From: an uncultured virus (IMG/VR IMGVR_UViG_3300035422_000248)
Lineage: Duplodnaviria; Heunggongvirae; Uroviricota; Caudoviricetes
Reading direction: 5' to 3' (one strand)
DNA: 20,000 nt
IMG/VR virus record: IMGVR_UViG_3300035422_000248
Location: 47,949-67,948 of that record
Part shown: positions 1-17,357 of the stretch, in pieces
Position numbering within the stretch: position 1 is the first letter of the stretch
Layout: each line of letters starts with the position of its first letter
Position numbers and translations under genes: made by a program
Notes under the pieces: model-generated
The model's database searches: none
What the model saw: the letters and a program-made list of their open reading frames with translations, nothing else
What the model was told of the DNA's origin: nothing

Positions 1-3000
1 TTGGCGATTTTCAGACCTTGCAGGAATTTGTCAAGGAACTGCTGAACCTTTGCCTTGATTTTTCCCCAAAGCGTCAGTTCATCACGGTTCATCTTCTCAA
101 ACCCCTCGCTTCCGATGCGGCCGCCGAGGTCTGACATATATTCCTCCGTGGCTTCATTGCGGAATTGCCCGCGCTTCTTCTCGGCTTCTACACGTGCCTC
201 TGCCATGTCGGTATAGTAGTGTGAGTTCACATCTTCTCCGGCACGCTCATGAGCCATGCTCTTGCGCACACGCAGGCGGTCGGCTTCGGCTGATACCATC
301 TCATCAGTCATTTTGTCAATGACCTTGCGAATGGGATTAGAGGCATGAGCATAAACCTCTCCGAGGAACTCATCAAACCGATCTTCGCCGATAAGCGCAC
401 GCAGGCCCTTATGCCCGACAACCTCATGCACCACCGTGTTATCCACGTCAGCCACATTCACGTTGTTAGGCAGAACGACAACAACGCCATTATCATCCGA
501 ACTCCACCAACCTTTGGCACGTCTTTCCCTGCGAGTGGAGAGGTTGTTAACCTCCGACTGGTTGCGGATTACTCGGATATGCGTGTGTAGGTCATTAGAT
601 AGGCTTTCCACTCGTGCCTCCTTTGCTTCGGGCGATGACTCGTAAGCGTCCATGTATTCACGCGCTCTCTCCAGTCCTGCATCCCATTCGCCTGCATTTA
701 CACGATCGCGCAAATCTTCAAGCATAGTAACGTCTCCCTCGGCTACACTGCCGCTGATACCGCTGAACTTCGCGCCACGTTTGGCGAGTTCTGCGCGGAG
801 CATGGGAGGTACGGCGTTAATCGGGAATGCAACCTTTTGGTCACCCACACGCTCCATGATGAGGTCTGCAACCTCGCTCCACGGAACAATCCTGCTCGGC
901 TTGAAGTAGCGCGACAGCATGGTCTGAACCTTTGTCTCCTCGCTCAACTGGCCGTTAACGCTTCCGCTGTGCCAGTCCATAAGACCTACACTGTCTTTTG
1001 CGCCTTCGGCATGGTAGCCGCTGGTCTCTTCGCTTTCGGGATAGTAACCCTCCACGACAAGAAGTTCGGGGCGGTCGTAGGCGGCTGTGAACTGATCGTT
1101 GAGCGGTGAGGTGCGGATATGGAAATAGGGATTGTAGGCAACACCGCCGGTCGTGCGTCCGTTACCCTGCACAAGGTCGGCCTTGCCGTTGGCGTTCATC
1201 ATGCCCTCTTCGCTCTGCTCCCAACGGCTGAATATCATCGGAGCGCGCCACTCACCATTCTGCTTGGCCGTCATGGGAGGCAACACACCCATGTTCGCCC
1301 ACTGCGAATAGCGGAAGCCTTTCTTCAGCGGCTGATTGTTGAGGAAGTCAAGCACCGGTCCCTCTTCAACGAGACGATACTTGTTGCCGTCTCCATTGGT
1401 GGGAGTGTCCTCTCCGTCATCATCTAACGTAATGTCGGAAGCTGCATCAACGGATTTATCCATTTCGGCATACTTCTTCTCCTTTTCCTCCAGTTCTTTT
1501 CTCATCGCTTCCTCATATTGAGCGAGACGCGCCTTAGCCTCGGCGAGTTGCTGTTTATGGGGGAACTCCCTGCCGTTGCGCTCCTTGAGTTGGCGGTAGT
1601 CATCGGAGTATCGCGCGAGTTGCTTCTGGCCGCGTGAGAGAAGTTCTTGGCTGTCCGCGCCGGTCACAATCCTCTCCGCGATTTCCTCCATGATATTCTT
1701 GATGCGATTGCCTTTTACGGCCCGGTCCTTGATGCCGAGTGCCTCACACGAGTATGTAACTTCTCTCTTCGGCTCAAAGGATATTTGACCCTGTCCGTTG
1801 TTATCCACAATACGCGATACGTTGGTAGTCACCTCAAAAGGCAAACCGTCAACGTCAATGGTGAGTTTGCTTATCCAATTATCTGCACCCTCTTGAATTT
1901 GATCGGCGGCTTCATTCATCTTGGCGTTCTGCTCTTTGAAGAAATCGCCCATTGCTCCCACGCTGTCAAATGTGAGTTTGCCGATGGTTATCTTCTTGAT
2001 CGTGCCGTCGGGCCAATGTTTGCCGATGATTTCAAGGTTCTTGGTCTCAATCTCAATACGGCGTTCCGCGCCCTTGATGAGACCCTCCACCTTTGGCAAT
2101 TGGTTGTGGATGTAGATTTGGTCTATCTCATGACCTTTCTGCTTGGCGGTAAGATTGCGAACCTCGCGCTCGGCTTGGTTCTTCAGTATGGCATACTCAC
2201 TGCCCGACAACTGAGCGGTCATATCACCGAAAGAGTCCTCTTCCTCTTCAAGTACTCGGTTCTCCATTGAATTCTGCATCATCTTTGAGCCGTTCATAAT
2301 GGAATCCGCGATTGCGCCTTTGGTTTTCAGTCGCTGATATGCGGTAACGTCAAGACTATCCTCAACGCCGAAACGGATTATGCGCACCGGGATACCCATA
2401 TCCTTATGCAGGTTGCCCTGTCGCAGGGCACGTCCGTTGCGCTGGGTATAGTCCATAGGACGGTTGGGCGCGTCCACATGGATAAGCGTGTGCAGACGCT
2501 CCTGAATATTCACGCCGGTACCGAGTGTGAATGTTGAGCCGAGTATCACACGGATTTCTCCGGCATTGACTTTCTCGAAGATGTCTAACTTCTTCTTTAT
2601 TGTCATGCCCGATTTGATAATCACAATCTGCTCGGCAGGCACGCCCTCGGCAATGAGTTTGTTTCTGATCTCCTCGTAGAGGTTGAAACCGCTTCTCTTG
2701 TTTTGGTAGTTGTCGGAGAAGATTGCAACGGTGCCTTTATACTTCGCACTATCCTTGAGGGAACGCAGTGTCTCGCGCACGGTTGCGTTGGTCTTGCTGT
2801 TGGGGTCATCCTCGGCGTTGTCAACGACAAGTCGTGCATCTACGGCGGCCGCTTTGGCTATGCCGTACATGGTGAGGGGGATGTGAGAGTTCTCTTTTTT
2901 CTCCTTACCCTCCATTTTGTCGTAACGGTCCAGTTCTGCCTTTACATACTTCATCACACTGCGCAGGGCGCGGGTCTGAGGCAGGTAAATGTCAGTCGGC

Positions 3001-6000
3001 TTTCCTCCCTCCATTTCGGGGATTTTATCGCTCACACCGCCTGCCTCGCGTGTCAGAACGGTATCGGCTACACCGCTCCAAATGCGCACGAGTTCGGGTA
3101 GGTTTACATACCCGGCAAAGCGGCTCACCTCGGCAAACTTGCCGTTGGTCTTGAACTCAACCATCTGTGCGAGGTTGCCGAAGTTGCGGACAAAATCATC
3201 AAAGTAATATATGCCGTACTCTTTCATCGTGTCGGCAGGCATGAGGTAGCGCATGAACGTCCAGATTTCAGCGGCTGTGTTGGAGATAGGCGTACCTGTC
3301 GCAAACACAACATTGCGCCCGTGGTTGCGCTCCATGACTGCCTGCGTTTTCAGATATACGCCCTGCGACTTCTTGCTGTACGAGGGGTCAACACCTTTCA
3401 CTCCTCTCTGCATGGCAGTGGAGAAACCGAGGTGTTTGTATTCATGAGCCTCATCTATGAGAAGAGCGTCAATGCCCATATCATCGAAGTTTTCCACATC
3501 ATCCACCTCGCGGTCAAGCATCTCCATTGCTCGCACTTCGGCGTTCTGACGTGTGGTTGCCTCTCTCTTCTCATCGCGCTTTTTCTTCTTGCCCTGTATC
3601 GCTTCGGTCAGTTCGGCAAGGCGGTCGCGCTGTTCCTCAATCTCCTTTTCGGCCTGGCGCACAATCATGCTTCTGCCGTTATCATCGGCTTCACGCATGG
3701 CATCAAGAACTTTCAATTTTTCCTCAATGACATCTTGAATGTATGCCAGTTCGCGCTCCTCGCTGTCGGGTATGCGCTCAAATACCGACTGAGGAACGAC
3801 AATCATATCCCAGTCGTTGTACTTGATTTTCGCGTAGAAATTCTTGCGGCCCTCGGCTGTGCGGTCTGCTTCCTCAATAGTCAGCACCTTTGCATTGGGA
3901 TAAATCTCCTTTGCGCTCTCCACAAACTGACCGACTGTTGCGTTCTGCACAACTATCATAGGCTTGCGTGCTGTGCCGAGACGGCGCATTTCCATTGCCG
4001 TGGTGATAAGGGTGTAGGTCTTGCCGGTCCCGACCTCGTGAGCAAGCAGTATCGGCTCGGTCGTGCCTCTGACTACCGCTCGGCCTTGATGAGGACGCAA
4101 TGCAAAGGGTCTGCCGTGCAACTCTGTCACTTGACCGCCGAAATGCTTGGGAACAAACTCATCGGGAATTGACATAGGCACATAGTTGTTTAACTGCTCG
4201 TTGTAGGTATGCTCGATACGCGCCGACATATCCGGGTCTGCCTGCATACGTTCACGCGCCCAGTCTTTGAACTCTGCGCGGATTTCATCAATCTTGGTAC
4301 TGCACTCTGCGGTGGCGGCCTTGTCGGTTATGGTCTCTGATGTGCCATCCCATTTCTTTGTGGTCTTGCTGACGGTGATCTGCTTGTTGGTTATGGCAGC
4401 TTCAATCAGTTCATGCCCCATGATAGTCTTGTCACACATCTTGCTCGTTACCGACATGGCGCGGTTCTTTTCATTGAAGGTACTCCACGGAGTTTTCATA
4501 AACCATGTACCGCCTGCATTTGTCAGTTTCACACGGATACCTGTCTTTTCCTCCACGAAGTCCTCATAGAGTTTAGGTTCTATCCATGAAGAGCCGAGCG
4601 AGAACTCGATGAGGTGCGCAGGTATCGTCATGGGCATAACCTTTTCAAGAGCGGTGATATTCGGGTTATATCTGCCGTCCTCGTTGTTCTCCTGCGCGAT
4701 GTGCAGCTTCTCACGGACGTTGCCCGAAAGATACTGATACGACACCTCCATTGCCCCGGTTGAGGGGTTCTCGAAGCCGAGTCCGCTTTCCACGATTTCC
4801 TGCTTCACCTGCTCCTTGCTCTTGCCGAGTGCCTCGCTGATGTAGTCCACATCTATACTGCCACTCTTATAGAGGCTTGCAAGTATGCCGTCCTTGACTG
4901 TCGTAGGCTGTGGCTCTTTCTCCTTTTCAATCACACGGCGGCTGAAAATATCGGTCTTACCTGCCTTGACAACCTTGTTGCCTTTGTTGTCTCCTTTCTC
5001 CGAATAGGTCTCAAGTGCCATGATGCTTGAGAAGTCCACATCGTTGCGGAGGAAAGAGATTGCAGTATTCTTGTGGAGGTTGCCGTAGGTGCGCGTGAAT
5101 GTATCAAAGGCGCGGTTCAGTTCTTTCAACAGCGGCTCCAGTCCTGCGTCATCTTCATTGGTTGACTGATATTCCAGTACGTCCGACAACGCTTTCTTGA
5201 TCGCGCTGTATGCGTTGAAACACTCTGCCTTTGTGTGACCCTTGACCTTGTTTTTATTCAGTCCAATAGGCACAGCCTCGCCCATTCGGGCCATGCAGAG
5301 TTCTCCTTGTGAGTTCAACACCATGCTTCCCTCCTTGACACCATCGCCGAGTTTCTCATTGATGCGCATCACGGCTTCCTCTACATCGTGGTCTGAACGG
5401 AGTGAGGACATATCCTCCTCCATGTCTGCAAATCGGCTGACCCATTCGCTCAACATCTTATCCTGCGGTTTGTCAGCCGAGGGGAAGAGGGCGCGGCTTG
5501 TCGGTTGCCATGTCTCACCGCGCTCAAAGTTGAACATCATCTCGCCTGCCATATTCTCCGGGTGTTCCGCAAAATATTTGTTGTAGGTCATGCTGTACGG
5601 CTTGATGATAGGTACTTCCTGCCCCTTGACCTTGCGAGTATCCCCGGTGTCATAGTCTGCTACACGCACTGCGGTCACATCCGTAACGTCTATGGCGTTG
5701 GCTGACTGCTTGCCATTCACGCGCTTGCGCACAACGATAATATCAGAGGTTGCCCCGGTGCCTCCGAATGTCTTGTTGTGCATACGGAATGCCCCTATAA
5801 CATCGGTATTACCCTCGTTGATAATCCAACGGCGTAACTCTTTGGAGTTATCCATTGTACCGCTTGATGTGATGAAAATACCGATACCACCCTCGCGGAG
5901 TTTACGGACATTCTTTGCGATGCAGAAATCATGAATATTGCGGAATTTCTTGGAGAGGTCTTTGTCTCCAGTATCATCCTTAACGTGCAGACCTGTTACG

Positions 6001-9000
6001 AAAGGCACGTTGGTTATGGCAAGGTCAATGCTGTTGTTGCGCACTTTCGTTCTCTCAAAACCTTGTACGTCAACTCGTGCATCGGGATATAGCAACGAGA
6101 GTATGCCACCAGTGGTACGGTCAATCTCAACCGCATGGATATTACTGCGGTCGCTCATATCAGTGGGCATAAGTCCGAGGATATTGCCGATACCTGCTGA
6201 ACCCTCAAGCACATTGCCTCCCTTGAAACCTAATGCTCTCGCAACATTCCACATAGCATCAATGACTGGGGCAGGAGTATAGTATGCGCTATTTCGGCTC
6301 ATGACGGCATCATTATATCCGTCCTCGCCTAACAACTCACGCAGGCGGCTGACAGTCGGGTTATAGCCATTATCATTGAAAGCCTTACCGAGACCACCCC
6401 AACCGCTGAATTTTCGGAGTACCTCCATTTGTTCGGGCGTGGCGGTCTCTCCTGCATCAAGCAATTGCTTGGCAAGTTCAATAGCCTCAATGTTAGCCTT
6501 GATACGTGCGTCCTCACCTTTGGGGGCGTAGTCCACACCACGCTCCGCATGGTTGTTGCGCACGTTCCTACGCTCACCCTCAGGCAATCTCTCATTGTGG
6601 GAGGAGGTCTTATCGGTAGTTAAGGCTGATTTCGCAGGCTGTTCAGATACTCCTGCGCCTCCCTTACCGTCAGAGACAGGATGGTCGCTATCACGTCCAC
6701 CCATTCCTCCTCGGTCAGTTCGCTTAACTTCATTCCGCTGGCTCTCTCCCAACGGTTCATTCGGTTGAGGTTCGTGTCCTCCTGCTCGCTCGGTAGTGCC
6801 GGGGCGAGGTTGTACGTCAGTTTTCTTTTCATCGCTTATCGGTTCATCGAACAATCCACCGAAGAGGTCTCCGATCGGCTGTTCGGGTTTAACTTCCGCT
6901 TTTTTCTTCGCAGGTGCTTTCGGCTTCTTCTCCTGCGCCTCCTTTGCCACTCGCGCAGCTTCCTCAAAGATGTCCTCTTTGGGAGCGACAGCAGGTTTGT
7001 CTTTGGGTGTAGTCGGCTCTTGCTTCTCAATCTGACTCCACTCGCAAGCCTCATACATAACCGGTGCCATGCCGGTGTCAAGAGTAACATCAGAGCCGCC
7101 TCCGAAGTCAACGATGGTGGCGAGTTCGCGTTTGTGCTTGCCATCATTTCGGGTGTACCAAACCTTTTCACCGACCTTAAAGCCGTTCTTCTCGGTCTCG
7201 GCGATTTCGTGACGGTTCCAATAACCGCCTGCATCGTAAGGCTCGGCTTCCTCCGCTTTGGGCAGATAATTTCGCGCCTCGTATTTTACAGCGTTAAGGA
7301 AGTCAGAGTATGTGCAATCGGGTTGTATCCATTGATTATTGCCATATCGGTCTGCACCTTTCACTTCGGGTGCTTCCACTCGATACATGATGCTACGCAC
7401 TTCAAGGTTATCGCCATACCCATAGCCGTTCTTGTAAGCGTCGCCTCCGCGTCTATGCACAGGGTCAAGTCCGATGTAGATATGCAGTTCGCGTCCGTCC
7501 TGCAAAGGCAATGCAATAGTTACGTCACCTCCGGCGGGAGCGAGGTTTGCTCTTACAGCAGTGCCTTTCTTGACACTCTTGCGTCCGAGGGGAGTTGTCG
7601 CGCTCGTAACCTTGATGTCAAGACCAAGGTCATTAACCAACTGCTTGGCGAGTTTCGTTGCGTCTGCCACGGCTTTCTTCTCGGCTGTGAGCATATAGCC
7701 GTAACTCTCGTGGAATTTCGCGTCATCTGCCTCGGCTTCATAGTAGCCGAGCAGGGCCAGTTGATCGTTTATCTCATCGAGCGTGTTGTCTATTTCTTCT
7801 CCTGCTCGGTTGAGGGCTGTTGTATCTTCTGAAGTTTCTGCGAGACTTTCCGCTTCGCTTGCAACAGCCTCTGCTTTTTCTGCAAGAGCTGCTGTATCTG
7901 CTGCTGTTTGTTCATCCTGTTTCTTGCGGTTATTGTTACGGATTTCGGTTAATTCTTTCTGCGCCTGCTCTGATGCGGTGGAGGCTTTACGCTCCTCCAC
8001 AATCATGGCCGCCTGCGCGATTGGGTCTGCCTGCTTCTTGTCAAAGTTCTGCACATCGAAGCGTGCAACCTCCTCTGACGGAGTAAAGGCATAATTCTCA
8101 TAGCCGGGTGTCCAGCGTGCGCCCTCATAGAACGACTTGAGCCACGGACGTATCTTATTACCCAACAATCCCACCATCTTGGTAGCATAGTCAGGGAATG
8201 ACGTTGTGCCACGCTCCACGAGACCCATTGCCAATCGGATACCTGCCGACTGGATGCGCTGACGCTCCTGCGGGGTGAGTTCGCCCGGATCGCGGAATTT
8301 GAGAGTGCTGTCTCCCTCATCTTCTCCTATACCGAGGAGGTCACGCAACTCGTTAGCCAATGACTGCATCTCATCATCGCTAATCTCGTGCTGTGCCTCT
8401 TTCGGTGTGTCAGCAGGTTTGTCTTTGGGTGAAAGCGGCTCTGCATGGTCGCTTAACTTCGCTTCCCCCTTTGTCTGCAAGTCCTTTGCCACATCTTCAA
8501 GACTGACGCGGTTGATAGCTGCTTTCTTCGGCTTCTTTTCCGATGTAGGTTTCTTCTTTGCAGGCGCAACCGCCTCGCGGAGTTCCTCTGCGGTCATAGG
8601 CTGTGCGTCTGCAACCGCCTCGCCCGACTTGTCGGCAATCATCTCGCCTGCCTTGCGTGCGTCCTCCTCGGTGCGGAAGAGCCACTCTGAATATGTGTCT
8701 TTGTCCGAACACCAACCGCGGGCCTTTCTGCCGTCTGCCTTTTCACGAGCAAAGGCGGCCAACGCCTTGCGCTGTTCATAGGTGGGAGGTGTAGCGAAAG
8801 ACACTGCGTGCATCGGCGTGGTCTTGCCTGCCTTGTTGGTGTACGTGGAGGGAGTGATTGTGTAGGGTGCTGACGGTTCGGCGGGAGCAGGAGCATTGGA
8901 CGCTCCGACCGCTTTCACGCTCTTGTATTCAGAGAATGGTTTGGTCTTGCGCTTCGATGACTGCACCCACTTCTTGAACTCATCTTTGCTCACTTGGGTT

Positions 9001-12000
9001 ATTGCTCCCAGACCGGTCCACCCGGCTTCATAGTTGGAGAGGTACGCCTCGCGTGCAACTTCCTCCGAGGGGAAGCCATACATAACCTTGTGTTCATCAA
9101 ACGAGCCGTCCGCGTTGCGTTGGTCGATGACAAACACATCGCCCTCTTCGGGAGTGTCCGAGAGGAACACGTCAATGTGGTCTCCGTCCACACCCTCCGT
9201 GCCACGAATATAGCCGTAGTCATTGTGCATCTCGGTTTCCCACTCCGTGCCGTCTGCGTTCTTACCACGGCGCACACTTCCTTTGGGGTTCTCAATGCTG
9301 ATGTTGTAACCATCAATACGGCGGTGTTCCATCTTGTAATTTCCGGCGGCTTTCTGCGCTTCGGTAGGCTCGGCAGAGGCGGTGTCTATCGCCTGCGCTA
9401 TGCTTGCGAGGTCTCCGTAGTCCTTGCCGTTATAGGTGAGTTGACTGCCCGTGTACGAGCCTTTATCGTCCGGCGCATCAGTTTGGATAATCTCATGCTT
9501 GCCGTCAACGTAAAGTTTACGCTTGTATATCGGGTGAGCCTCATCGGGACCGGCTTCTTCCCACTCATCGCCTACGCTGATACGCGCACGCAGGGCGGCT
9601 TCTTCGGGGGTGTCCTCGTTGATGTCGTTACGGTCATTGCCGAGCGGCTCTAAATCGGTGCGCTCCTCCGCTACTGGTTCTGAACGCTCTGCATTGCGTT
9701 CATCAACATTCGGAGTTTGTTCACTTGCTTGGCCTCGTCCACGCTGTTCTGCTTCGGCTTCTGCTCTGCGCTTGCGCTCCGCAATGGCAGCGTCCACGAG
9801 TGCCTGCTGTTCTCTTGGGGTTGCATTTCTGAAATGTTCATTTACGTTTGTGAGAATATTTTCTTTGGTGGGTATCTCGCCTGTGAATAGGTCTGCTTGA
9901 CCGCTTGCAGACTGCGATGCCTCGTTGTTGTAGGAGGTCAGAACCTTGCGCAGGTCGCTCGGCTTGCCGCTGTTCAACAGGTCTGCAAGAAGAAGAGTGG
10001 TGGCGTCCGTCACGCGGCTGTCTCCGTACTCATCATCAAACAAACCCTGCATACGTCCGAAAGGTGACACTGGCATACCGTCAGTGTAGATGTCCGGCTG
10101 TGCGGCTTTGGCACGATACACGAGGTCAACCGCTTTGGATAGTTCCTCGCTCAAATCGTAGCCGGAGCGAGAGAGAGTGCGGTTGCTTGCAATCTCATTC
10201 AATCCCATGACGATAGACTGGCGCATGGTCGGCATGGAGATAATCTGACGCACTGCATCGGGCGAGGTTTGGAACACCTTGCCGATAAGTGTATTTTCGA
10301 TCAACTCCTTGCCTGCAGCCGACAGTGCGGTGCCGGTCCGCATTTCGGGCATTTGCTTGTCGTTGATTACACCTGCCTGCATCAGTGCGCCTAAAGCGTG
10401 CGCCACGGCTTTCTCATCGGCATAATAATCCGAAAGTCGGTCATAACGGCTGATCTCGCCTACAAGGTCATTGAAAATATTGTCGGGAACAATCTTGCCG
10501 AGTTTCACGGCGGCTTCGGGTTTAGACTGGCTCTTCATCTCCTGCGCGTTGAAACGTGAGAAGGTGGTTGCATCGTAGGGGAGGGCCTCATCCGGCACGA
10601 ATACCAGTCGGGGGTTCTTCATCCCTGCAACCTGCTCCGGGGTGAAGCCGTACTTCTGCCCGAACTCTCGCAGATAATCAATATAAGCCTTGTCAGTACC
10701 CTGCCGTGCGGCGAGGTCTCCGCTCATGGTGCGGTTGTTGCCCGACAGCACCACGCCGTCACGACTGACAATTACGGGAGTCTGCAAAGCGCGGTTGTCG
10801 TATGCGCCTGCCATTTGCTCCACAATGCGCTGTGCGTCCTTGTCGCGGAGGTAGTCGCGGTCATTCACGCTCTGTCCGTTCTCATCAATCGGGAAACCCT
10901 CGGTCGGCTCGTATGCGTTGTTGACATCGTGGCTCGCGGAGGCGGCTCCTGCTTCGGTAAGTACATAGCGACCGTGGATTGTAGAGCCGTCCGGCAAAGT
11001 GATTGCATCGGGGTTGCCCTCAATCTTCGGAGTGTTATCCCATTTCTCTTTGATTTTGGGATTGACCGCATGAACGCCTACGCGCTCCTGTTCGGCCTGC
11101 TTCTCGGCTTTGATGCGCTGTTGCTCTTCAAACTGAGCCACGGCTGCATCATGCGCCTCTGCATCACGCTGACGGCGTTCCTCCTCGCGCTGACGGCGTA
11201 ATTCTGCACTGCGTGAAGTATAGACACCCAATATCGCGTTCCATGCGTCAAGGCGCGCCTGCGTGTCGGCAATCTGCTGATTGTATTGGGCGAGTTCGCT
11301 CTGATACTTTTCGGCCGCCTCGCGCTTCGCCTGCGCCATAGCCATAGGTGAACCTTTCAGTTTGGGTGCTTTGGGTGTAGGCGGTTTCTTCTTGAGTGCT
11401 TCAAGGTCGGAGGTTGCCTGCTGAACCTGCGCCGTGGCAATGTCAGCCGCGTCACTCTCACCGCCGACAGCCTCAACAAGTCCATCCCAGGCCGTCTCTT
11501 TCTCCACGGCTTCAAACATCGGCTCTCCCTCCTCGTTGAGAGGGATGCGAGAGAGTGCCGTTTCCTGTCCGTTTCCTACACTTGCGTCCGTTTCAGACAC
11601 GTTTTCACCCTCTGAAACGGCGTTTTCGGTAGAATTGGGAACGCTTTCATCGGTTTTGGGAACGCTATTGGCGGCTCTGTCCTGCTGAACAAACTCCAGT
11701 GCTTCAAGTCTGCCACGGATATAATCATCCACGCGCCCTTGCTCCTGCATCTGCTTCTGCGCACCCTCGCGCAGTGCGTCCACATAGGTGGCAAGTCGCT
11801 CATCGGTGAGGCTCTCTGCCTCCTCGATTGCGTCACTATATCCACGGTCATACTCCTCAACATTGGGGGTTGGAATATTTTCCTCCCCATTGTTGCCTTC
11901 TACTGGAATATTTTCATCGGGGTTGTTGCCTGTCGGCTCTTCCGCAACCTCGGCAGTTTCCTCGGCAGGGTTCTCACGTCCACTGAACATTGACATCTGC

Positions 12001-12173
12001 TCCTGCTCAATGACTTCATGAGCGGCTCGCAACTCCTCCTGCGGATCCACCGCCTCGGAGATATTCAATATTTGGTCGGGTGAGGTAAACTCATACTCAC
12101 CGCTCTGCGCGTCCATGACAACGACACTCTCCGAAGAGTTCCGTACGTCAACGGCAGTGCCGTCGGGGAACAT
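1..12173 (-). CDS. Giant DarB-like polyvalent protein (>=4057 aa, 3' end outside window): DdrB/ParB-like + inorganic pyrophosphatase-like + N6-adenine DNA methyltransferase + SNF2/SF2 helicase + zincin metallopeptidase
   Basis: ATG at 12173-12171 begins MFPDGTAVDVRNSSESVVV. The same frame still reads as protein at the left edge (EATEEYMSDLGGRIGSEGFEKMNRDELTLWGKIKAKVQQFLDKFLQGLKIA). The ORF track has no - strand ORF closing in this frame below 12173, consistent with no internal stop. Motifs translated by hand: VLSGNNRT, GTEGVDGDHIDVF, FSGWGG, VLEGSAGIG, NVPF, HEVGTGKT, DEAH, ATGTP, QRNGRALRQGN, HEVVGH. Confidence 0.93.
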   Translation of the reverse strand, partial: MFPDGTAVDVRNSSESVVVMDAQSGEYEFTSPDQILNISEAVDPQEELRAAHEVIEQEQMSMFSGRENPAEETAEVAEEPTGNNPDENIPVEGNNGEENIPTPNVEEYDRGYSDAIEEAESLTDERLATYVDALREGAQKQMQEQGRVDDYIRGRLEALEFVQQDRAANSVPKTDESVPNSTENAVSEGENVSETDASVGNGQETALSRIPLNEEGEPMFEAVEKETAWDGLVEAVGGESDAADIATAQVQQATSDLEALKKKPPTPKAPKLKGSPMAMAQAKREAAEKYQSELAQYNQQIADTQARLDAWNAILGVYTSRSAELRRQREEERRQRDAEAHDAAVAQFEEQQRIKAEKQAEQERVGVHAVNPKIKEKWDNTPKIEGNPDAITLPDGSTIHGRYVLTEAGAASASHDVNNAYEPTEGFPIDENGQSVNDRDYLRDKDAQRIVEQMAGAYDNRALQTPVIVSRDGVVLSGNNRTMSGDLAARQGTDKAYIDYLREFGQKYGFTPEQVAGMKNPRLVFVPDEALPYDATTFSRFNAQEMKSQSKPEAAVKLGKIVPDNIFNDLVGEISRYDRLSDYYADEKAVAHALGALMQAGVINDKQMPEMRTGTALSAAGKELIENTLIGKVFQTSPDAVRQIISMPTMRQSIVMGLNEIASNRTLSRSGYDLSEELSKAVDLVYRAKAAQPDIYTDGMPVSPFGRMQGLFDDEYGDSRVTDATTLLLADLLNSGKPSDLRKVLTSYNNEASQSASGQADLFTGEIPTKENILTNVNEHFRNATPREQQALVDAAIAERKRRAEAEAEQRGRGQASEQTPNVDERNAERSEPVAEERTDLEPLGNDRNDINEDTPEEAALRARISVGDEWEEAGPDEAHPIYKRKLYVDGKHEIIQTDAPDDKGSYTGSQLTYNGKDYGDLASIAQAIDTASAEPTEAQKAAGNYKMEHRRIDGYNISIENPKGSVRRGKNADGTEWETEMHNDYGYIRGTEGVDGDHIDVFLSDTPEEGDVFVIDQRNADGSFDEHKVMYGFPSEEVAREAYLSNYEAGWTGLGAITQVSKDEFKKWVQSSKRKTKPFSEYKSVKAVGASNAPAPAEPSAPYTITPSTYTNKAGKTTPMHAVSFATPPTYEQRKALAAFAREKADGRKARGWCSDKDTYSEWLFRTEEDARKAGEMIADKSGEAVADAQPMTAEELREAVAPAKKKPTSEKKPKKAAINRVSLEDVAKDLQTKGEAKLSDHAEPLSPKDKPADTPKEAQHEISDDEMQSLANELRDLLGIGEDEGDSTLKFRDPGELTPQERQRIQSAGIRLAMGLVERGTTSFPDYATKMVGLLGNKIRPWLKSFYEGARWTPGYENYAFTPSEEVARFDVQNFDKKQADPIAQAAMIVEERKASTASEQAQKELTEIRNNNRKKQDEQTAADTAALAEKAEAVASEAESLAETSEDTTALNRAGEEIDNTLDEINDQLALLGYYEAEADDAKFHESYGYMLTAEKKAVADATKLAKQLVNDLGLDIKVTSATTPLGRKSVKKGTAVRANLAPAGGDVTIALPLQDGRELHIYIGLDPVHRRGGDAYKNGYGYGDNLEVRSIMYRVEAPEVKGADRYGNNQWIQPDCTYSDFLNAVKYEARNYLPKAEEAEPYDAGGYWNRHEIAETEKNGFKVGEKVWYTRNDGKHKRELATIVDFGGGSDVTLDTGMAPVMYEACEWSQIEKQEPTTPKDKPAVAPKEDIFEEAARVAKEAQEKKPKAPAKKKAEVKPEQPIGDLFGGLFDEPISDEKKTDVQPRPGTTERAGGHEPQPNEPLGESQRNEVKRTDRGGMGGRDSDHPVSDGKGGAGVSEQPAKSALTTDKTSSHNERLPEGERRNVRNNHAERGVDYAPKGEDARIKANIEAIELAKQLLDAGETATPEQMEVLRKFSGWGGLGKAFNDNGYNPTVSRLRELLGEDGYNDAVMSRNSAYYTPAPVIDAMWNVARALGFKGGNVLEGSAGIGNILGLMPTDMSDRSNIHAVEIDRTTGGILSLLYPDARVDVQGFERTKVRNNSIDLAITNVPFVTGLHVKDDTGDKDLSKKFRNIHDFCIAKNVRKLREGGIGIFITSSGTMDNSKELRRWIINEGNTDVIGAFRMHNKTFGGTGATSDIIVVRKRVNGKQSANAIDVTDVTAVRVADYDTGDTRKVKGQEVPIIKPYSMTYNKYFAEHPENMAGEMMFNFERGETWQPTSRALFPSADKPQDKMLSEWVSRFADMEEDMSSLRSDHDVEEAVMRINEKLGDGVKEGSMVLNSQGELCMARMGEAVPIGLNKNKVKGHTKAECFNAYSAIKKALSDVLEYQSTNEDDAGLEPLLKELNRAFDTFTRTYGNLHKNTAISFLRNDVDFSSIMALETYSEKGDNKGNKVVKAGKTDIFSRRVIEKEKEPQPTTVKDGILASLYKSGSIDVDYISEALGKSKEQVKQEIVESGLGFENPSTGAMEVSYQYLSGNVREKLHIAQENNEDGRYNPNITALEKVMPMTIPAHLIEFSLGSSWIEPKLYEDFVEEKTGIRVKLTNAGGTWFMKTPWSTFNEKNRAMSVTSKMCDKTIMGHELIEAAITNKQITVSKTTKKWDGTSETITDKAATAECSTKIDEIRAEFKDWARERMQADPDMSARIEHTYNEQLNNYVPMSIPDEFVPKHFGGQVTELHGRPFALRPHQGRAVVRGTTEPILLAHEVGTGKTYTLITTAMEMRRLGTARKPMIVVQNATVGQFVESAKEIYPNAKVLTIEEADRTAEGRKNFYAKIKYNDWDMIVVPQSVFERIPDSEERELAYIQDVIEEKLKVLDAMREADDNGRSMIVRQAEKEIEEQRDRLAELTEAIQGKKKKRDEKREATTRQNAEVRAMEMLDREVDDVENFDDMGIDALLIDEAHEYKHLGFSTAMQRGVKGVDPSYSKKSQGVYLKTQAVMERNHGRNVVFATGTPISNTAAEIWTFMRYLMPADTMKEYGIYYFDDFVRNFGNLAQMVEFKTNGKFAEVSRFAGYVNLPELVRIWSGVADTVLTREAGGVSDKIPEMEGGKPTDIYLPQTRALRSVMKYVKAELDRYDKMEGKEKKENSHIPLTMYGIAKAAAVDARLVVDNAEDDPNSKTNATVRETLRSLKDSAKYKGTVAIFSDNYQNKRSGFNLYEEIRNKLIAEGVPAEQIVIIKSGMTIKKKLDIFEKVNAGEIRVILGSTFTLGTGVNIQERLHTLIHVDAPNRPMDYTQRNGRALRQGNLHKDMGIPVRIIRFGVEDSLDVTAYQRLKTKGAIADSIMNGSKMMQNSMENRVLEEEEDSFGDMTAQLSGSEYAILKNQAEREVRNLTAKQKGHEIDQIYIHNQLPKVEGLIKGAERRIEIETKNLEIIGKHWPDGTIKKITIGKLTFDSVGAMGDFFKEQNAKMNEAADQIQEGADNWISKLTIDVDGLPFEVTTNVSRIVDNNGQGQISFEPKREVTYSCEALGIKDRAVKGNRIKNIMEEIAERIVTGADSQELLSRGQKQLARYSDDYRQLKERNGREFPHKQQLAEAKARLAQYEEAMRKELEEKEKKYAEMDKSVDAASDITLDDDGEDTPTNGDGNKYRLVEEGPVLDFLNNQPLKKGFRYSQWANMGVLPPMTAKQNGEWRAPMIFSRWEQSEEGMMNANGKADLVQGNGRTTGGVAYNPYFHIRTSPLNDQFTAAYDRPELLVVEGYYPESEETSGYHAEGAKDSVGLMDWHSGSVNGQLSEETKVQTMLSRYFKPSRIVPWSEVADLIMERVGDQKVAFPINAVPPMLRAELAKRGAKFSGISGSVAEGDVTMLEDLRDRVNAGEWDAGLERAREYMDAYESSPEAKEARVESLSNDLHTHIRVIRNQSEVNNLSTRRERRAKGWWSSDDNGVVVVLPNNVNVADVDNTVVHEVVGHKGLRALIGEDRFDEFLGEVYAHASNPIRKVIDKMTDEMVSAEADRLRVRKSMAHERAGEDVNSHYYTDMAEARVEAEKKRGQFRNEATEEYMSDLGGRIGSEGFEKMNRDELTLWGKIKAKVQQFLDKFLQGLKIA
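120..560 (-). other. Zincin-like metallopeptidase domain of the giant protein (polyvalent-protein type, HExxxH)
   Basis: AKGWWSSDNNGVVVVLPNNVNVADVDNTVVHEVVGHKGLRALIG, with HEVVGH at 428-411 and a downstream acidic helix EATEEY at about 155-138. This layout is typical of the metallopeptidases in phage polyvalent proteins. Confidence 0.72.
2300..4110 (-). other. SNF2-like superfamily 2 helicase/translocase domains of the giant protein (DarB-type)
   Basis: Q-motif LRPHQ near 4090, Walker A HEVGTGKT (4040-4017), DEAH (3455-3444), motif III ATGTP (3302-3288), motif V LGTGVNIQ and motif VI QRNGRALRQGN (2444-2412). Confidence 0.92.
5700..6560 (-). other. N6-adenine DNA methyltransferase domain of the giant protein
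   Basis: LRKFSGWGG, then SAYYTP, then SAM-binding motif I VLEGSAGIG (6212-6186), AVEID, and catalytic motif IV NVPF (6011-6000). Motif I precedes motif IV, as in DarB-like MTase-helicase fusions. Confidence 0.92.
6620..6832 (-). CDS. Putative overprinted 70-aa helical protein nested in an alternative frame of the giant gene
   Basis: MKRKLTYNLAPALPSEQEDTNLNRMNRWERASGMKLSELTEEEWVDVIATILSLTVREAQEYLNSLRNQP has normal, amphipathic-helical composition. The host frame over the same interval is a G/R/P-rich disordered linker. Confidence 0.55.
   Translation of the reverse strand: MKRKLTYNLAPALPSEQEDTNLNRMNRWERASGMKLSELTEEEWVDVIATILSLTVREAQEYLNSLRNQP
6974..7020. repeat. 47-bp imperfect direct repeat, copy A (partner at 8396-8442)
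   Basis: 40/47 identity by manual alignment, with an exact 21-bp core CAGCAGGTTTGTCTTTGGGTG (6989-7009). Encodes EPTTPKDKPAVAPKE. Confidence 0.85.
8396..8442. repeat. 47-bp imperfect direct repeat, copy B (partner at 6974-7020)
   Basis: Exact 21-bp core at 8411-8431. Encodes EPLSPKDKPADTPKE. The offset between copies is 1422 bp (474 codons). Confidence 0.85.
8925..9370 (-). other. Inorganic pyrophosphatase-like (InPase) domain of the giant protein
   Basis: PTEAQKAAGNYKMEH...ISIENPKGSVRRG...MHNDYGYIRGTEGVDGDHIDVFL...FDEHKVMYGF. The YGYI..T...DGDxxD and DxK pattern mirrors family I PPase active-site motifs, as seen in phage polyvalent proteins. Confidence 0.88.
10490..11000 (-). other. DdrB-like ParB/Srx-fold domain of the giant protein
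   Basis: IHGRYVLTEA..SHD...NDRDY...LQTPVIVSRDGVVLSGNNRTMS...FSRFN. The PVIV..DG.V.SGNxR motif (about 10778-10731) corresponds to the ParB/Srx GxxR signature. Confidence 0.75.
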
Positions 12174-15100
12174 CACCACTTGACAACATAGACCTGCCTG
12201 TCATCAACTTTCATCGTGGCAGGGATAATCACACCGCTGTCCTTGTGGGTGCGCTTCTCCACAGCCTGCTCAACCTCCGCACGCTTGCGGTCAGCGGCCT
12301 CATTGGAAGCGTCCATAACGCCGTCAAGCGCGGCCTTGGCGTTGATGTAGTACAGAACCGCGTCCTGCTGTTCAACGGTCAGTTCGGGGTCATTGAGCAA
12401 ATCCCACGGATTTTCATTGAGGTGGAACATATAATATTCGCTCTCCGCTCCGAAAGCGTCCTCAACGCCTTGGTATGCCTCCTGCATACGTATGGTGATA
12501 GCGTCCACGTCAGCCTGCGCGGTCGGGTCACCCTGCTCAAAGCGGCCATACAGCAATCGCCCCTCCTTTTGCATACGCCACGCACGGATTACGTCCTTAC
12601 GATGTTCATCTTTGGCTTCTTGGTATGCCTTTTGCCAAACATCATTGGCATTGCGTGTGCGCTCTCCCTCGGTGTAAAGACGCTCGATATACATCTGAAT
12701 AGCATCCTGCTCTTTGGGTGTGCGGTCTTTGGCGCGTTTCTTCAGTGCAGTGTCAATATCAACACCGAATTTGTCATTTATATGCTCCCTCAACACTGCG
12801 GGATTAAGCAGGCTCTCTTTATACATTCCCTCGGCGAGAGTGTTGACATCATCAATTATCTTCTGCTCGGCTTCCGAAACATTCTCACCGCGCAGATACT
12901 TCTCATAGATATTCTCAATGCCTTCGGGAATGATGCCGTGCTTCTCGCTGACCTCCCAAACAACATTGTGGGCCGCTGTCCTCTGCATTTCTTGATTGGC
13001 AAACTGCTCGCCTACGTCCACCGAATTGAGTTCTGCCTGTCGCATGATGTTGTCAACCTCACCCTGCGCTTTCTCCTTGTTGGCAAACCTGCGACTGGTA
13101 ACGACATCGCCGTTGGCGTTGGTGGCGTTCACAATCACACTGCCGTCCTCGGCTGTGGTGGTCTGATACCCGGTGACGCTTGACATCGGGAGCATACGAC
13201 CCGTGAGGATATAGTAGGCTTTGGCGCGGGCCGCTTCACTGACCCTGCCGTCCTGCATCAGTTTCTCCATTGCCGAATAGCCGTCAAATTCGGGTCTGCC
13301 GTTGTATATGATCTCAGCCTCCGCACGCTCGGCTCTCAACTCGATTGCTCCCTCCGCAGGGTTAGGCTGTGAGATAGGACGCTCCTTGTCGCGGCTGAAC
13401 AGGTCGGCAAGTTCGCCATAACCTGCCCGGCGCAACTCCTCGCGCTCATCGGCTGTGAAAGATAGATCGTTCGGACTCGCGTCCATATTCTTGCGCAGAC
13501 GCTCCTCAAAGTTCATGCGGTTGTGAGTGCGCTCTGCCTGCGTCAGAGGTCTGCCCTCAGTCGGCTTGATAGGACGCAGACCTGCAATGACACGCGGTGC
13601 GCTCTTGATACCGTGCTGTGCCTTGAAGCCAAGCATCATTGCCATGTTGTCAGTCCACACGTCCATTGCATCACGCTCTCCGCTTATCCATTCGGGGATA
13701 GAGAAGATTGTACCCTCCGCAAGAGTGGACACTGCAACCTCACCACCGCGCACAGCCATCTTGCCTGCCGTGGAGGTCGTAACCTTGACCGCCTTGTCAG
13801 CCACATTGCCTATGAGAGGGGATGCAGTACCAACTATACCACCCATTATGAAACCATGCTTGGTGGCATTGAGTAGGTCTTGCCCGGAAAATCCGTTGGA
13901 AGTGCCGGTTGCATAGTCGGGCATACCCCCGGTTGAGGCTTGCTGTTGCAAGTTCTTTAATGTCTCATAAGTGGCAAAGTTAAATGCACCTCCGGCTGCA
14001 CCCTGCACAAGTCTCCCAGTGAGGGTTCTTGCTGCAATCCGCTCGGCCATTTCTTTCGTAGCACCTTTAATCATTTGCTTACCCGCAATCTTTAACGCCT
14101 GCTTTCCCGCTGCGCTCCCAACACCTCCCGATATGTATGTGGTCGGGTCAATTGCCATATTGCCGATTGTGCCGATTATATCAAGCACACGATGCTCTTG
14201 ACCGTATTGAGACATAGCAGCTTGGTCTGCTATTGTCATTCCATACGAGCCAGTCATAGCCGAAGCGGCCATATCCATTGCTTGATAAGTGGAAACGAAA
14301 GGCTGATCGGCAAGTTTTCGCAAAAAGAACTCAGTTTTACTCTTAGGCATACGCGAGTCTACAGCGTGCTGATAGACCGCTTGGTAAACTTCACCTTTGA
14401 GTGCTTCCTCTGCGGCTGACTGGACGGTACGCCCATTCAGTTCGTTGGTATGAGTTGAGAAATACTGCTGATAGGCCTGAAGTTGAGAATTGCGATACGA
14501 TGAGGGCAACCCGGCATAAACGCTTTCAGCCATTTTTTCAAGGTTGAATGTCTCCTTACGCTTGACTGCCCGATTGTAGTCTCGTAAGTTCTCTTCGGGA
14601 GTAGGCAGAGGCATTCCGTCCGGTCCATAGGCTCGGATATTGCTCCGAACGGAATTATTATACTCCTTGAGTTGGCGTGTGTATTCCTCATCAGCCTCTC
14701 TATCCTCGGCTTCGGCTTGCGCCCAGACATTGCTAAGAACTTTGCGCATAGGTGCCTCATAGTCCAACTGCGCCTGTTTCTGAACGTCCTCCTGCTTGCT
14801 CGGGTCAAGTCCGTTCTGCTTCATGCGCTCTACAAACTGATTGCGCAGACGGACCGTGCGTGCGCCGTACTCCGCTTGGTCTGCCTCGATAAGGCTTGTA
14901 GTCAGTCGGCCATCGGGCAACAACCACTCCGTGACAGGCTTGCCGTCCACATACTTCACTCCGTAGGGGACTGGAGACTGACCGCTCTGAATAGGCTTCT
15001 GCTCTGCACCGTCCGTCTCACCGCCTTGTGTATCGGGCGCGGACACTGATGTTGGGGGGGTAAGACCCATGACCTGCGTGGGAGTGCCTGCAAGCTGCGC

Positions 15101-16865: not shown

Positions 16866-17357
16866 TTAGAACGCGCCTGCTATCCCTGCGCCTGCCTGTG
16901 CCACACCCTGCACGGCAGAACTGATAGCCTGCGCTTTGTTGATTTCAAGATTGTTCAGAGCGTCATTTATCTGCGCGTCCTTCTGCTGATAGGTCTGCTC
17001 GATTTGGTCTTTGCGTGCCTCGGCATTGACGGCGATCTGCGAAGTTGCATCGGCGAGAGCCTGATTGTTGGCAGCTTTGGCGGCTGCAACGCTCTCCTCC
17101 GTGCCTCCCATGACAGCCTGCGCCCCGGCGGCTTGGCGGTTGCGGTTCTTGATAGACTCCTCCGTCTTGGTGAGGATACGTTGAGCATCGGCACGCTGTG
17201 TCGCGTCCTCATTGTATCTGCGGTCGTACCAGTCTTGATTTGCCTGCTTCTGCGCCTGCAAATTCTTCTTGACTTTCTTCATGGCTTTACTTGCCGAAAT
17301 ACCGCCGAAAATACTCCCGACTGCCGACAAGCCTGCGCCTACTAAACTTCCTATCAT
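16866..17357 (-). CDS. Small putative ejection/DNA pilot-like internal virion protein (163 aa)
   Basis: G/A-rich hydrophobic N-terminus (MIGSLVGAGLSAVGSIFGGISAS), Q/N/A-rich coiled-coil core and G/A-rich hydrophobic C-terminus (AVQGVAQAGAGIAGAF). This architecture is typical of small podoviral ejection proteins (P22 gp7/T7 gp14 role). Confidence 0.8.
   Translation of the reverse strand: MIGSLVGAGLSAVGSIFGGISASKAMKKVKKNLQAQKQANQDWYDRRYNEDATQRADAQRILTKTEESIKNRNRQAAGAQAVMGGTEESVAAAKAANNQALADATSQIAVNAEARKDQIEQTYQQKDAQINDALNNLEINKAQAISSAVQGVAQAGAGIAGAF

Follow-up and report, generated by a model that had tools for sequence, protein, structure and literature searches.

The window analysed here, a stretch of 20,000 nucleotides, carries at 6620..6832 on the minus strand an open reading frame that lies in the +1 frame within a DarB-like gene of 5,289 codons in a Muribaculaceae (pro)phage. 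With a probability of roughly 0.8, it is a genuine protein-coding gene. The assignment is based on the ORF and its translation, on comparison with related loci and on AF2 structure prediction. We refer to the encoded family as the WE family. An earlier note on this DNA had suggested a dual-coded small protein in a linker of the giant gene. This suggestion is supported, as homologous loci retain the start codon, the uninterrupted frame and the stop codon, and the alternative frame is under purifying selection.

The giant gene and its nested reading frame

The host gene is a DarB-like polyvalent anti-restriction ORF (3..12179, minus strand); it has 5,289 codons in the full record, of which the window covers 4,059. 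It matches ddrB-ParB, InPase and Helicase_C in Pfam as well as phrog_10089, annotated as "DarB-like antirestriction" (E 2.8e-197 and 0). The N6-adenine methyltransferase (MTase) part of its MTase-helicase block is located at 4680..6602 (minus strand) and was assigned by phrog_11801 ("DNA methyltransferase", E 1e-58) and phrog_10089. The block starts just downstream of the nested gene and is colinear in all clades. Judged by these predicted domains, the giant gene is a DarB-like polyvalent gene, whose single polypeptide contains additional effector modules besides an N6-MTase and SF2 helicase block. It is similar to DarB of the phage P1 Dar anti-restriction system and to the polyvalent proteins (PMC5512222) in having MTase, SF2 helicase and ddrB-ParB modules. 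The terms "frameshift", "overlapping", "alternative frame" and "linker" are absent from the main text of this article, and a nested gene in DarB or polyvalent proteins is not described in the portion of the literature that was searched. The neighbouring gene encodes a T7 gp14-like internal virion protein, as would suit an effector that is delivered with the virion.

The nested ORF runs from ATG to TAA (stop at 6620-6622, minus strand), comprises 70 codons in the +1 frame relative to the giant ORF and translates to MKRKLTYNLAPALPSEQEDTNLNRMNRWERASGMKLSELTEEEWVDVIATILSLTVREAQEYLNSLRNQP, followed by the stop; LSELTEEEWVDVIATILSLTVR is an example of a peptide in this frame. Position and translation were exactly as previously claimed, and the giant frame over the same DNA reads precisely the string quoted for it. 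In the main frame, this DNA encodes a disordered G/R/E/P-rich linker between the N-terminal effector modules, which are variable, and the conserved MTase-helicase block. The motif KPEQPIGDLFGGLFDEPIS (6834..6890, minus strand) lies immediately upstream of the nested gene. It is conserved when read in the main frame but not when read in the nested one, and its "DLF" core recurs in other clades and in a Parabacteroides record. That the ends of the ORF match those of the linker is roughly right: the ATG abuts KPEQPIGDLFGGLFDEPIS, and the stop is located about 15 codons before the conserved start of the MTase block.

In its composition the ORF differs from other shadow ORFs of the gene, for which an R/S/P/T-rich composition had been noted earlier. 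The giant gene has 16 stop-to-stop ORFs of 60 codons or more in this frame, and among them the nested ORF has the lowest fraction of R+S+P+T (0.27; others 0.36-0.57) and is the sole acidic one (D+E 0.15; others 0.00-0.06). Its length was rejected as evidence. The +1 frame of the giant gene contains 139 stops in 4,059 codons, and the open stretch of 71 codons at 6620..6832 ranks only about tenth, which corresponds to chance level. Since a stop in the +1 frame requires T at position 2 of the main-frame codon, a linker poor in hydrophobic residues yields long +1 ORFs for free.

Conservation, selection and predicted fold

A profile of the nested peptide recovered the ORF in all 50 related loci, which belong to 45 distinct contigs. 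A Met-to-stop ORF of 61-80 aa, always in the +1 frame and fully nested within a main ORF that stays open over at least 1,200 codons, is present in 42 of these contigs. One isolate genome (locus L002) is among them, with a nested ORF that is 97% identical. The exceptions are L010/L024, which carry a 1-nt indel, L048, where the host gene is degraded and the small ORF intact, and L052, where the 5' part is replaced and the Met is absent. In locus L025 there is no Met at the usual position and a Met is found 11 codons upstream. The nested ORF is also present in the complete RefSeq Parabacteroides record NZ_OY725834.1, whose MTase-helicase is 34% identical to that of the window and whose annotation lists the giant CDS only. 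Nesting holds from 86% down to 34% host-gene identity. The possibility that homologues have stops or frameshifts in the alternative frame, which the earlier note had regarded as decisive against a nested gene, was examined, and the frame was found intact in these 42 contigs. Four sequencing runs that were compared showed no indels and carried no signal on start sites.

The nested peptide of the window had no tblastn match in GenBank phages or PLSDB plasmids, P0039 none in phages, and P0008 and P0013 none in scans of viral contigs; the corresponding scan with P0039 gave a single match of 14 residues. Sampling of whole genomes yielded 2 matches in 401 at the order level and 2 in 401 at the phylum level. 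The extra phylum-level match, G541, was discarded as spurious, since it represents the low-complexity tail of an efflux protein. A profile-based search for longer homologous proteins of the nested peptide found none, which is weak evidence.

The selective constraints on the two frames were compared in 18 loci. Amino-acid identity is higher in the nested than in the main frame in 153 of 153 pairs, a count that overstates independence because the pairs are drawn from kindred sequences. For the nested frame, pS was 0.515, pN 0.220 and dN/dS 0.30, against a dN/dS of 1.48 for the main frame. The flanking control regions show the reverse, with dN/dS of 0.08-0.20 in the main frame and at least 0.96 in the alternative frames. 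The question raised earlier, which of the two frames is under purifying selection, is thereby answered in favour of the nested one. The main frame over the nested gene stays open: T was found at 0 of 470 at-risk sites, where 82.7 would be expected, and if synonymous codons were drawn at random, the main frame would be free of stops with a probability of only 4e-4 to 2.6e-2 per locus. As read from these substitution patterns, selection keeps the amino-acid sequence of the small protein, and in the main frame it keeps openness alone. The host frame is, on the same comparative grounds, maintained as well, as is required of true dual coding.

The phase of variation was scanned over all 5,289 codons in 836 windows using 5 full-length genes. 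It switches only at 6620..6832, at a second candidate ORF and in one stretch (aa 805-846) that diverged at all three codon positions. This stretch was rejected as dual coding and taken as a poorly aligned linker. The second candidate (7790..7915, minus strand) is a +1 ORF of 41 aa for a K/Q/L-rich helix, MNKQQQIQQLLQKKQRLLQAKRKVSQKLQKIQQPSTEQEKK. Main-frame third-position diversity collapses there, the dN/dS of its core is 0.28 in the +1 frame and 0.92 in the main frame, and every clade has the ORF in the +1 frame. A systematic scan of linkers in giant polyvalent proteins therefore appears worthwhile.

For the nested peptide, AF2 with an alignment of 35 sequences predicted three helices with a pLDDT of 92.8 and a pTM of 0.79. 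The main-frame translation of the same DNA (14 sequences) reached a pLDDT of 56 and a pTM of 0.12, and secondary structure is absent. According to the model, the nested product is an acidic three-helix-bundle protein of about 70 aa, belonging to an unnamed family with the motif R-M-x-x-W-E ... L-[ST]-x-E-E-W ... L-T-x-x-E-A-x-x-Y-L, a median net charge of -4 and a pI of 4.9. A profile search of 1.84 billion representatives identified 45 WE homologues at E<=1e-3. Many of the database entries listed as small proteins of this family may be nested ORFs that were called on broken contigs. The small protein had no match at a meaningful E in Pfam, PHROGs, NCBIfam, PADLOC or PDB sequences and no usable match in the ESM Atlas; the best library match was phrog_31592 of unknown function (E 0.0058). 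Fold searches returned only generic three-helix/HTH rows (Foldseek E>=1.1, VIA Z<=4.0). The best matches are the Nanog homeodomain at Z 4.0 and, in Foldseek, rows with E of about 1; the WE family is acidic. As these fold matches are generic, the proposed function of the WE protein derives from its gene neighbourhood.

Start region and alternative explanations

The ATG of the nested gene is located at 6830..6832 (minus strand), with its T as the third base of a main-frame Asp codon, GAT. The nested Met is kept in every locus listed while the main-frame residues over it vary (DE, HE, NG). It is also retained in divergent clades and displaced by one codon in locus L005. The start and the stop, whose conservation had been proposed as a check, are thus both kept in homologous loci, the former in spite of changing main-frame residues. 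Two codons upstream of the ATG, the codon layout places a nested-frame TAA (6836..6838, minus strand).

The putative translation-initiation region (6833..6862, minus strand) has low predicted structure and is A-rich in most relatives. In 20 of 23 loci, no more than 7% of the remaining ATGs in the +1 frame have as little structure over -30..+30, and the median percentile for A-richness is 0.04. The region of the window itself is less typical: it reaches only the 15th percentile for predicted structure and is not clearly A-rich, with an A content of 0.30 against a background of 0.29. Start sites of Bacteroidota that lack a Shine-Dalgarno sequence are unstructured and A-rich in appearance. The low structure around the nested ATG could also be a simple reflection of linker composition. 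The Bacteroidota -7 promoter consensus, TAnnTTTG, matches the window 5 times (6.8 expected), with no match on the minus strand inside the giant gene. In the proposed scheme, ribosomes would initiate internally on the giant mRNA at the conserved ATG and thereby produce a separate small protein. The conserved start codon and the unstructured, mostly A-rich stretch around it make such separate synthesis likely.

Alternatively, the WE sequence could be the end of a longer product. A +1 ribosomal frameshift or transcriptional slippage near GAA-AAG-AAA-ACT would yield a truncated N-terminal polyprotein that terminates at 6620 with a WE end, beside the full-length protein; dnaX and the tail-chaperone pair G/GT follow a similar logic, in which frameshifting gives two products. 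Support for such a fusion comes from four database proteins in which the WE domain is in frame with the IEAG/PYLK module, a main-frame module of the giant protein that lies upstream (8034..8384, minus strand). In P0044 and P0045 the WE domain is C-terminal and followed by a stop, whereas it is N-terminal in P0016 and P0031. These fused proteins, encoded on contigs of 1.8-3.4 kb, may represent frameshift chimeras. In a complex prediction, the WE protein and the IEAG/PYLK module gave ipSAE values of 0.01 and 0.00, which lend no support to an interaction but do not count against one. The window clade does carry an A-run at the frame junction, and natural or assembly variants that join the main to the nested frame occur in L010/L024 and P0006. 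However, a slippery sequence common to the clades is absent: L005 reads GAA-GAA-ACT, the clade of L055 is quite different, and only the ATG is shared, conserved across clades although the neighbouring residues vary. In several clades a nested-frame stop is located 1-4 codons upstream of this ATG, so close that almost no room is left for ribosomes entering the nested frame from upstream and the window for a shift is almost nil. Moreover, -1 slippage does not reach the nested frame, and free-standing homologues begin at the equivalent position. We therefore consider a frameshifted product improbable.

Much less probable still is that the conservation reflects an element acting at the nucleotide level, for example a structured RNA or a site for packaging, recombination or regulation, with the open +1 frame as a by-product. 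Such an element could account for the fact that all three codon positions vary less at 6620..6832 than in the flanks and that related-phage contigs from one metagenome run break or converge in this block. Yet diversity is phased on the nested frame (0.25 at position 1, 0.20 at position 2 and 0.40 at position 3), replacements in this frame are conservative, and the alignment of the peptide gives a high-confidence fold. Homologues are also found in unrelated nucleotide contexts, either free-standing or in genes of 34-50% identity, and the predictions show unusually little structure around the start. That the ORF is a random shadow ORF, or results from misassembly, for example through two compensating frameshift errors, is hardly credible: a 71-codon +1 ORF is indeed expected by chance in this gene with linkers that are poor in hydrophobic residues and free of +1 stops, but the same frames recur in the 42 of 45 independent contigs and in the complete RefSeq record, and selection (dN/dS, the open-frame test and the whole-gene scan), fold and homology contradict it.

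Free-standing relatives, origin and possible role

Free-standing WE copies were identified in four Bacteroidales genomes, namely G157, G988, G815 and, weakly, G804. Three of the four contexts are clear, and all three adjoin defence operons. The first is a Type III-like R-M operon. The second is brxA-brxB-brxC, with BrxC confirmed against PDB 9zdx (E 5.8e-25), and the third consists of a UvrD-like helicase, hsdR and ygjP (Type I R-M). The free-standing homologues start at the position equivalent to the nested ATG. The presence of family members in bacterial chromosomes indicates that the small gene is probably older and was engulfed rather than created de novo. De novo overprinting is unsupported in view of these copies and the 45 representative matches. 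The suggestion that a small gene was engulfed when the polyprotein fused, also made in the earlier note, fits better. The WE gene, with its kin beside Type I R-M, Type III-like R-M and BREX, is thus quite probably the older partner. An upstream and a downstream gene would have fused through its alternative frame, and the G/R-rich linker of the giant gene is better explained as a younger, merely open frame.

Nested genes are known from other systems. In phage lambda, Rz1 is a complete small gene inside Rz, with the same orientation, a +1 frame and its own start; both encode lysis (spanin) components of modest size. The WE gene shares these features, being entirely enclosed by a larger phage gene of like orientation, read in the +1 frame and equipped with its own start codon. 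In contrast to Rz, its host is an anti-restriction polyprotein of 5,289 codons, the overlap is limited to a disordered linker, and free-standing kin are found in bacterial defence loci. In Bacillus subtilis, comS encodes a small protein out of frame within srfAB on the same mRNA, overlaps an enzymatic domain of the NRPS and regulates competence. The WE gene, its expression being predicted, would similarly give a product on the scale of a few dozen residues out of frame in a giant multidomain gene. It differs from comS in that the overlap is placed in an inter-domain linker of a phage effector, in an arrangement conserved to 34% host-gene identity.

In viral genes that arose by de novo overprinting, DNA read in two frames encodes one ordered, conserved product and one disordered product. 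The WE gene is similar, as its product is ordered and conserved and the linker of the giant gene is disordered. In classical overprinting, the nested frame is the novelty, whereas in the WE case it is folded and probably the older of the two, and the host linker is probably younger and disordered. Overprinted viral genes are the subject of the reviews PMC8227390 and PMC3494269.

The WE protein has about an even chance of being a small accessory or regulatory partner of N6-MTase and SF2-helicase machines. The phage copy would then either aid the DarB-like MTase-helicase or hinder restriction or BREX enzymes of the host. A more far-reaching proposal, which we regard as rather unlikely at present, is that WE proteins form a new class of small acidic modulators of N6-MTase/SF2-helicase defence systems (Type I/III R-M, BREX), kept beside the operons by bacteria, and that gut Bacteroidales phages hide a copy, together with a second nested helical peptide at 7790-7915, out of frame in the linkers of their virion-delivered DarB-like gene. 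If this is true, the nested position would tie WE synthesis to translation of the giant gene, and the product would switch off or decoy restriction or BREX enzymes of the host, or gate the phage's own MTase-helicase.

Such nested genes are invisible to gene callers: the one curated RefSeq record marks the giant CDS only, and family libraries lack the WE protein. The present case represents clean, comparatively proven dual coding among gut Bacteroidales phages and elements that form a widespread group. The proposed order of origin is the reverse of textbook overprinting and suggests that a gene can survive its engulfment during gene fusion. Since free-standing relatives are found at loci for Type I R-M, Type III-like R-M and BREX, the WE protein may be a new small player in restriction and anti-restriction.

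Host gene and position of the nested reading frame

The giant gene (3..12179, minus strand; 4,059 codons) is the sole giant ORF on this strand and extends beyond the window, reaching 5,289 codons in the full 67,948-bp virus record. Pfam identified ddrB-ParB, an InPase module and Helicase_C in it. In PHROGs it corresponds to phrog_10089, 'DarB-like antirestriction' (E 2.8e-197 for the MTase part and 0 for the helicase part), with a further match to phrog_11801, 'DNA methyltransferase'. Upstream of it lie a gene for a T7 gp14-like internal virion protein (16866-17357, minus strand), a weak Pfam match (E 6e-5, 23.5 bits, below the 27-bit cut-off), and a phage integrase N-terminal domain (18507-20000, minus strand; Pfam). 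Two ORFs of 1,133 aa and 422 aa between the giant gene and these genes show no Pfam family; together they look like an ejection-protein module. A stretch identical to that of the window is contained in an uncultured Muribaculaceae MAG. These findings identify the element as a (pro)phage. Its giant gene probably encodes a polyvalent anti-restriction protein that is delivered with the virion, as such proteins are understood by Iyer et al. (2017; PMC5512222).

The nested ORF (6620..6832, minus strand) runs from ATG to TAA, encodes 70 aa and lies in the +1 frame relative to the giant ORF, which reads as a G/R-rich string over it. Conceptual translation confirmed this observation of the earlier note, and its unusual composition also held: the giant gene has 16 +1-frame ORFs with 60 codons or more, and this one stands apart with an R+S+P+T of 0.27 (0.36-0.57 in the others) and a D+E of 0.15 (at most 0.06 in the others). 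The +1 frame of the giant gene has 139 stops in 4,059 codons and the nested open stretch ranks about tenth by length; the length of the ORF proves nothing. The product and its homologues form an unnamed family with a W-E motif, here called WE proteins. Full-text literature searches on polyvalent proteins, DarB and overprinting in Bacteroides phages turned up no account of a gene nested in these proteins. The terms frameshift, overlapping, alternative frame and linker are absent from the main text of PMC5512222, as are the terms sought from that of a 2026 BREX survey (PMC12839542) outside its reference list.

Conservation and selection in the two frames

Scans with the flanking main-frame protein recovered seven other genome contigs and five viral contigs. 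The genome contigs with the homologous locus belong to Muribaculaceae, Porphyromonadaceae, Prevotella, Bacteroides and Bacteroidales MAGs. In the main-frame alignment, large indels abound around the supposed linker, which is itself more conserved. In 12/12 loci of this first set the +1 frame begins with an ATG, stays open for 69-72 codons and closes with a stop; in a thirteenth, L010, a 1-nt indel fuses the main frame with the nested frame. Further scans with the nested peptide as query added 25 viral and seven metagenome loci, and a much more divergent clade added six, with peptides about 35% identical to that of the window. An HMM from a 35-sequence alignment of nested peptides recovered the ORF in 50/50 loci, representing 45 distinct contigs. 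In 42 of these contigs it runs from Met to stop over 61-80 aa and is fully nested, always in the +1 frame, within a main ORF that stays open for 1,200 codons or more. The three exceptions are the viral contig of L010/L024 (indel), the metagenome contig L048, where the giant gene is degraded and the small ORF intact, and L052, where the 5' part is replaced and there is no Met. The position of the nested ORF, at the junction immediately before the MTase-helicase block, is the same in every clade. The sole curated record found with it is Parabacteroides distasonis NZ_OY725834.1 (186303-201215), which has a short-form WE ORF in the +1 frame at locus positions 8959-9168. Its RefSeq host CDS is a 4,970-aa 'LPD38 domain-containing protein' with no annotation inside it, and its MTase-helicase shows 34% identity to that of the window.

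Degraded junction remnants occur in L048 and in L069 (genome G983): stubs of 98-152 codons are all that is left of the giant gene there, yet the small ORF is intact. Single-base indels or deletions fuse the two frames in L010/L024 and in the database proteins P0006, P0015, P0011 and P0007. They could be A-run sequencing errors or natural variants, and they explain why gene callers occasionally report the small protein. In one metagenome (run X4), numerous short contigs with 90-99% identity stack up over the nested gene or stop precisely there (window ~6693-6890), as expected if several related phages have this conserved block in common.

In a first comparison, of a 60-codon block from 11 loci, pS and pN were 0.38 and 0.175 in the nested frame versus 0.19 and 0.23 in the main frame (L013, identical to L011, and the frameshifted L010 were left out; L011 is misaligned there by a one-codon indel). 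In an alignment of 18 loci, which left out the broken loci L048 and L052, amino-acid identity was higher in the nested frame in 153/153 pairs, which are not independent (means 0.675 versus 0.478), and dN/dS was 0.30 versus 1.48 in the main frame. Nucleotide diversity is phased on the nested frame (0.25, 0.20 and 0.40 at its positions 1, 2 and 3). Control regions of the same alignment gave a dN/dS of 0.08-0.20 in the main frame and at least 0.96 in the alternative frames. A main-frame stop arises where a nested codon ending in T precedes one starting with AA, AG or GA. Across the 18 loci, T was found at 0/470 at-risk sites versus 82.7 predicted from codon usage, and with synonymous codons drawn at random the main frame of a given locus would be open with a probability of 4e-4 to 2.6e-2. 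The main frame over the nested ORF is under selection too, only to stay open. These sequence comparisons support the dual coding proposed in the earlier note and show purifying selection on the nested frame. The nested frame is selected for its protein sequence, and the main frame only to carry ribosomes onward from the N-terminal modules into the MTase-helicase.

A sliding phase-of-variation scan over 1,650 and then all 5,289 codons (five full-length genes, 836 scan windows) detected a phase switch at three places only: window ~6851-6580, which is the nested ORF, ~7913-7805, and aa 805-846 of the giant protein (window ~9640-9767, minus strand). At aa 805-846 all three codon positions are about equally diverged; dual coding was set aside there in favour of poor alignment, and the region is probably a hypervariable or misaligned linker. 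A second +1-frame ORF at 7790-7915 (minus strand) encodes a K/Q/L-rich heptad-like helix of 41 aa in the A/E-rich linker just after the IEAG/PYLK module (8034..8384, minus strand). Main-frame third positions are almost invariant over ~29 codons of it, and dN/dS in its core is 0.28 in the +1 frame versus 0.92 in the main frame. Met and open frame are kept in 10/10 closely related loci, and every clade has the peptide in the +1 frame. It is a weaker candidate for dual coding than the WE ORF, because the main frame is moderately conserved there too.

Proposed expression and predicted structure of the small protein

The nested ATG is kept while the overlying main-frame residues vary (DE, HE, NG); in L005 it is displaced by one codon. 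Several clades carry a nested-frame stop 1-4 codons before it. In 20/23 loci, the -30 to +30 RNA has less predicted structure than that around 93% or more of the other +1-frame ATGs, and the 20 nt upstream are A-rich in most loci (median percentile 0.04). The start region of the window itself is unremarkable (A 0.30, 15th percentile for structure). The conserved ATG, the nearby upstream stop and the unstructured A-rich RNA fit an internal initiation of the SD-less Bacteroidota style on the giant mRNA, from which the WE protein would be made with a probability of roughly 0.7. Its main rival, a +1 frameshift from the giant frame, is improbable: the clades have no slippery sequence in common at the junction, and the nested-frame stops shortly upstream of the ATG also speak against it. 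The TAnnTTTG promoter motif is absent from the minus strand inside the giant gene, and therefore no separate transcript is proposed. Systems for comparison are lambda Rz/Rz1, comS/srfA and dnaX.

Directly before the nested gene, the main frame contains the conserved motif KPEQPIGDLFGGLFDEP (6834-6890, minus strand). Its 'DLF' core recurs in other clades, as NQLDLFGG in L046 and GNDLF in the Parabacteroides record. In sequence, the motif resembles the beta-clamp-binding motif QL[SD]LF.

For the nested peptide, AlphaFold2 with the 35-sequence alignment gave a pLDDT of 92.8 and a pTM of 0.79, with three predicted helices (residues 21-32, 41-51 and 56-67). The main-frame translation of the same DNA with flanks, used as control (14-sequence alignment), reached a pLDDT of 56 and a pTM of 0.12 with no secondary structure. 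Fold searches returned generic three-helix/HTH rows only (Foldseek E at least 1.1, VIA Z at most 4.0), and the family libraries searched contained no match to a named family. The family is acidic (median net charge -4, pI 4.9), which argues against a classical DNA-reading helix.

Free-standing relatives, origin and proposed function

At E<=1e-3, a profile search of 1.84 billion representatives returned 45 proteins, the majority 55-78 aa long. Several, namely P0006, P0015 and the members of the divergent clade, evidently stem from short contigs on which nested ORFs or frameshift chimeras were called as genes, so that the database count of free-standing WE genes is too high. Real free-standing copies exist. 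Matches were found in 5/201 genomes of the Bacteroidales family of genome G157. In G157, the WE gene lies 48 nt behind Res in a Type III-like R-M operon containing DUF4391, N6_N4 MTase, Schlafen/AlbA_2 and ResIII + endonuclease. In G988 it is followed after ~250 nt, with no change of strand, by brxA, a 184-aa gene and brxC (BrxC confirmed against PDB 9zdx, E 5.8e-25). In G815 it is preceded, at a distance of ~300 nt and again with no change of strand, by genes for a UvrD-like helicase, HsdR and a YgjP-like peptidase. The match in G804 is weak and motif-poor and diverges from cas9-cas1; in G983, what is left of the phage junction still includes an intact small ORF. The free-standing copies in Bacteroidales genomes suggest that the nested frame is the older of the two. 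Of the origins considered in the earlier note, engulfment of a small gene is the one favoured by these copies; de novo overprinting is not supported. In P0016, P0031, P0044 and P0045 the WE domain is in frame with the IEAG/PYLK module; these are candidate fusions, known from short contigs only (1.8-3.4 kb).

An N6-adenine MTase together with an SF2-type helicase or ATPase is the common build of the systems beside the free-standing copies and of the gene that hosts the nested one: Type I R-M, Type III R-M, BREX and DarB. This suggests, with about even odds, that the WE protein is a small partner or regulator of such N6-MTase and helicase machines. Its role in the phage would be either to help the DarB-like block or to counter restriction or BREX in the host.
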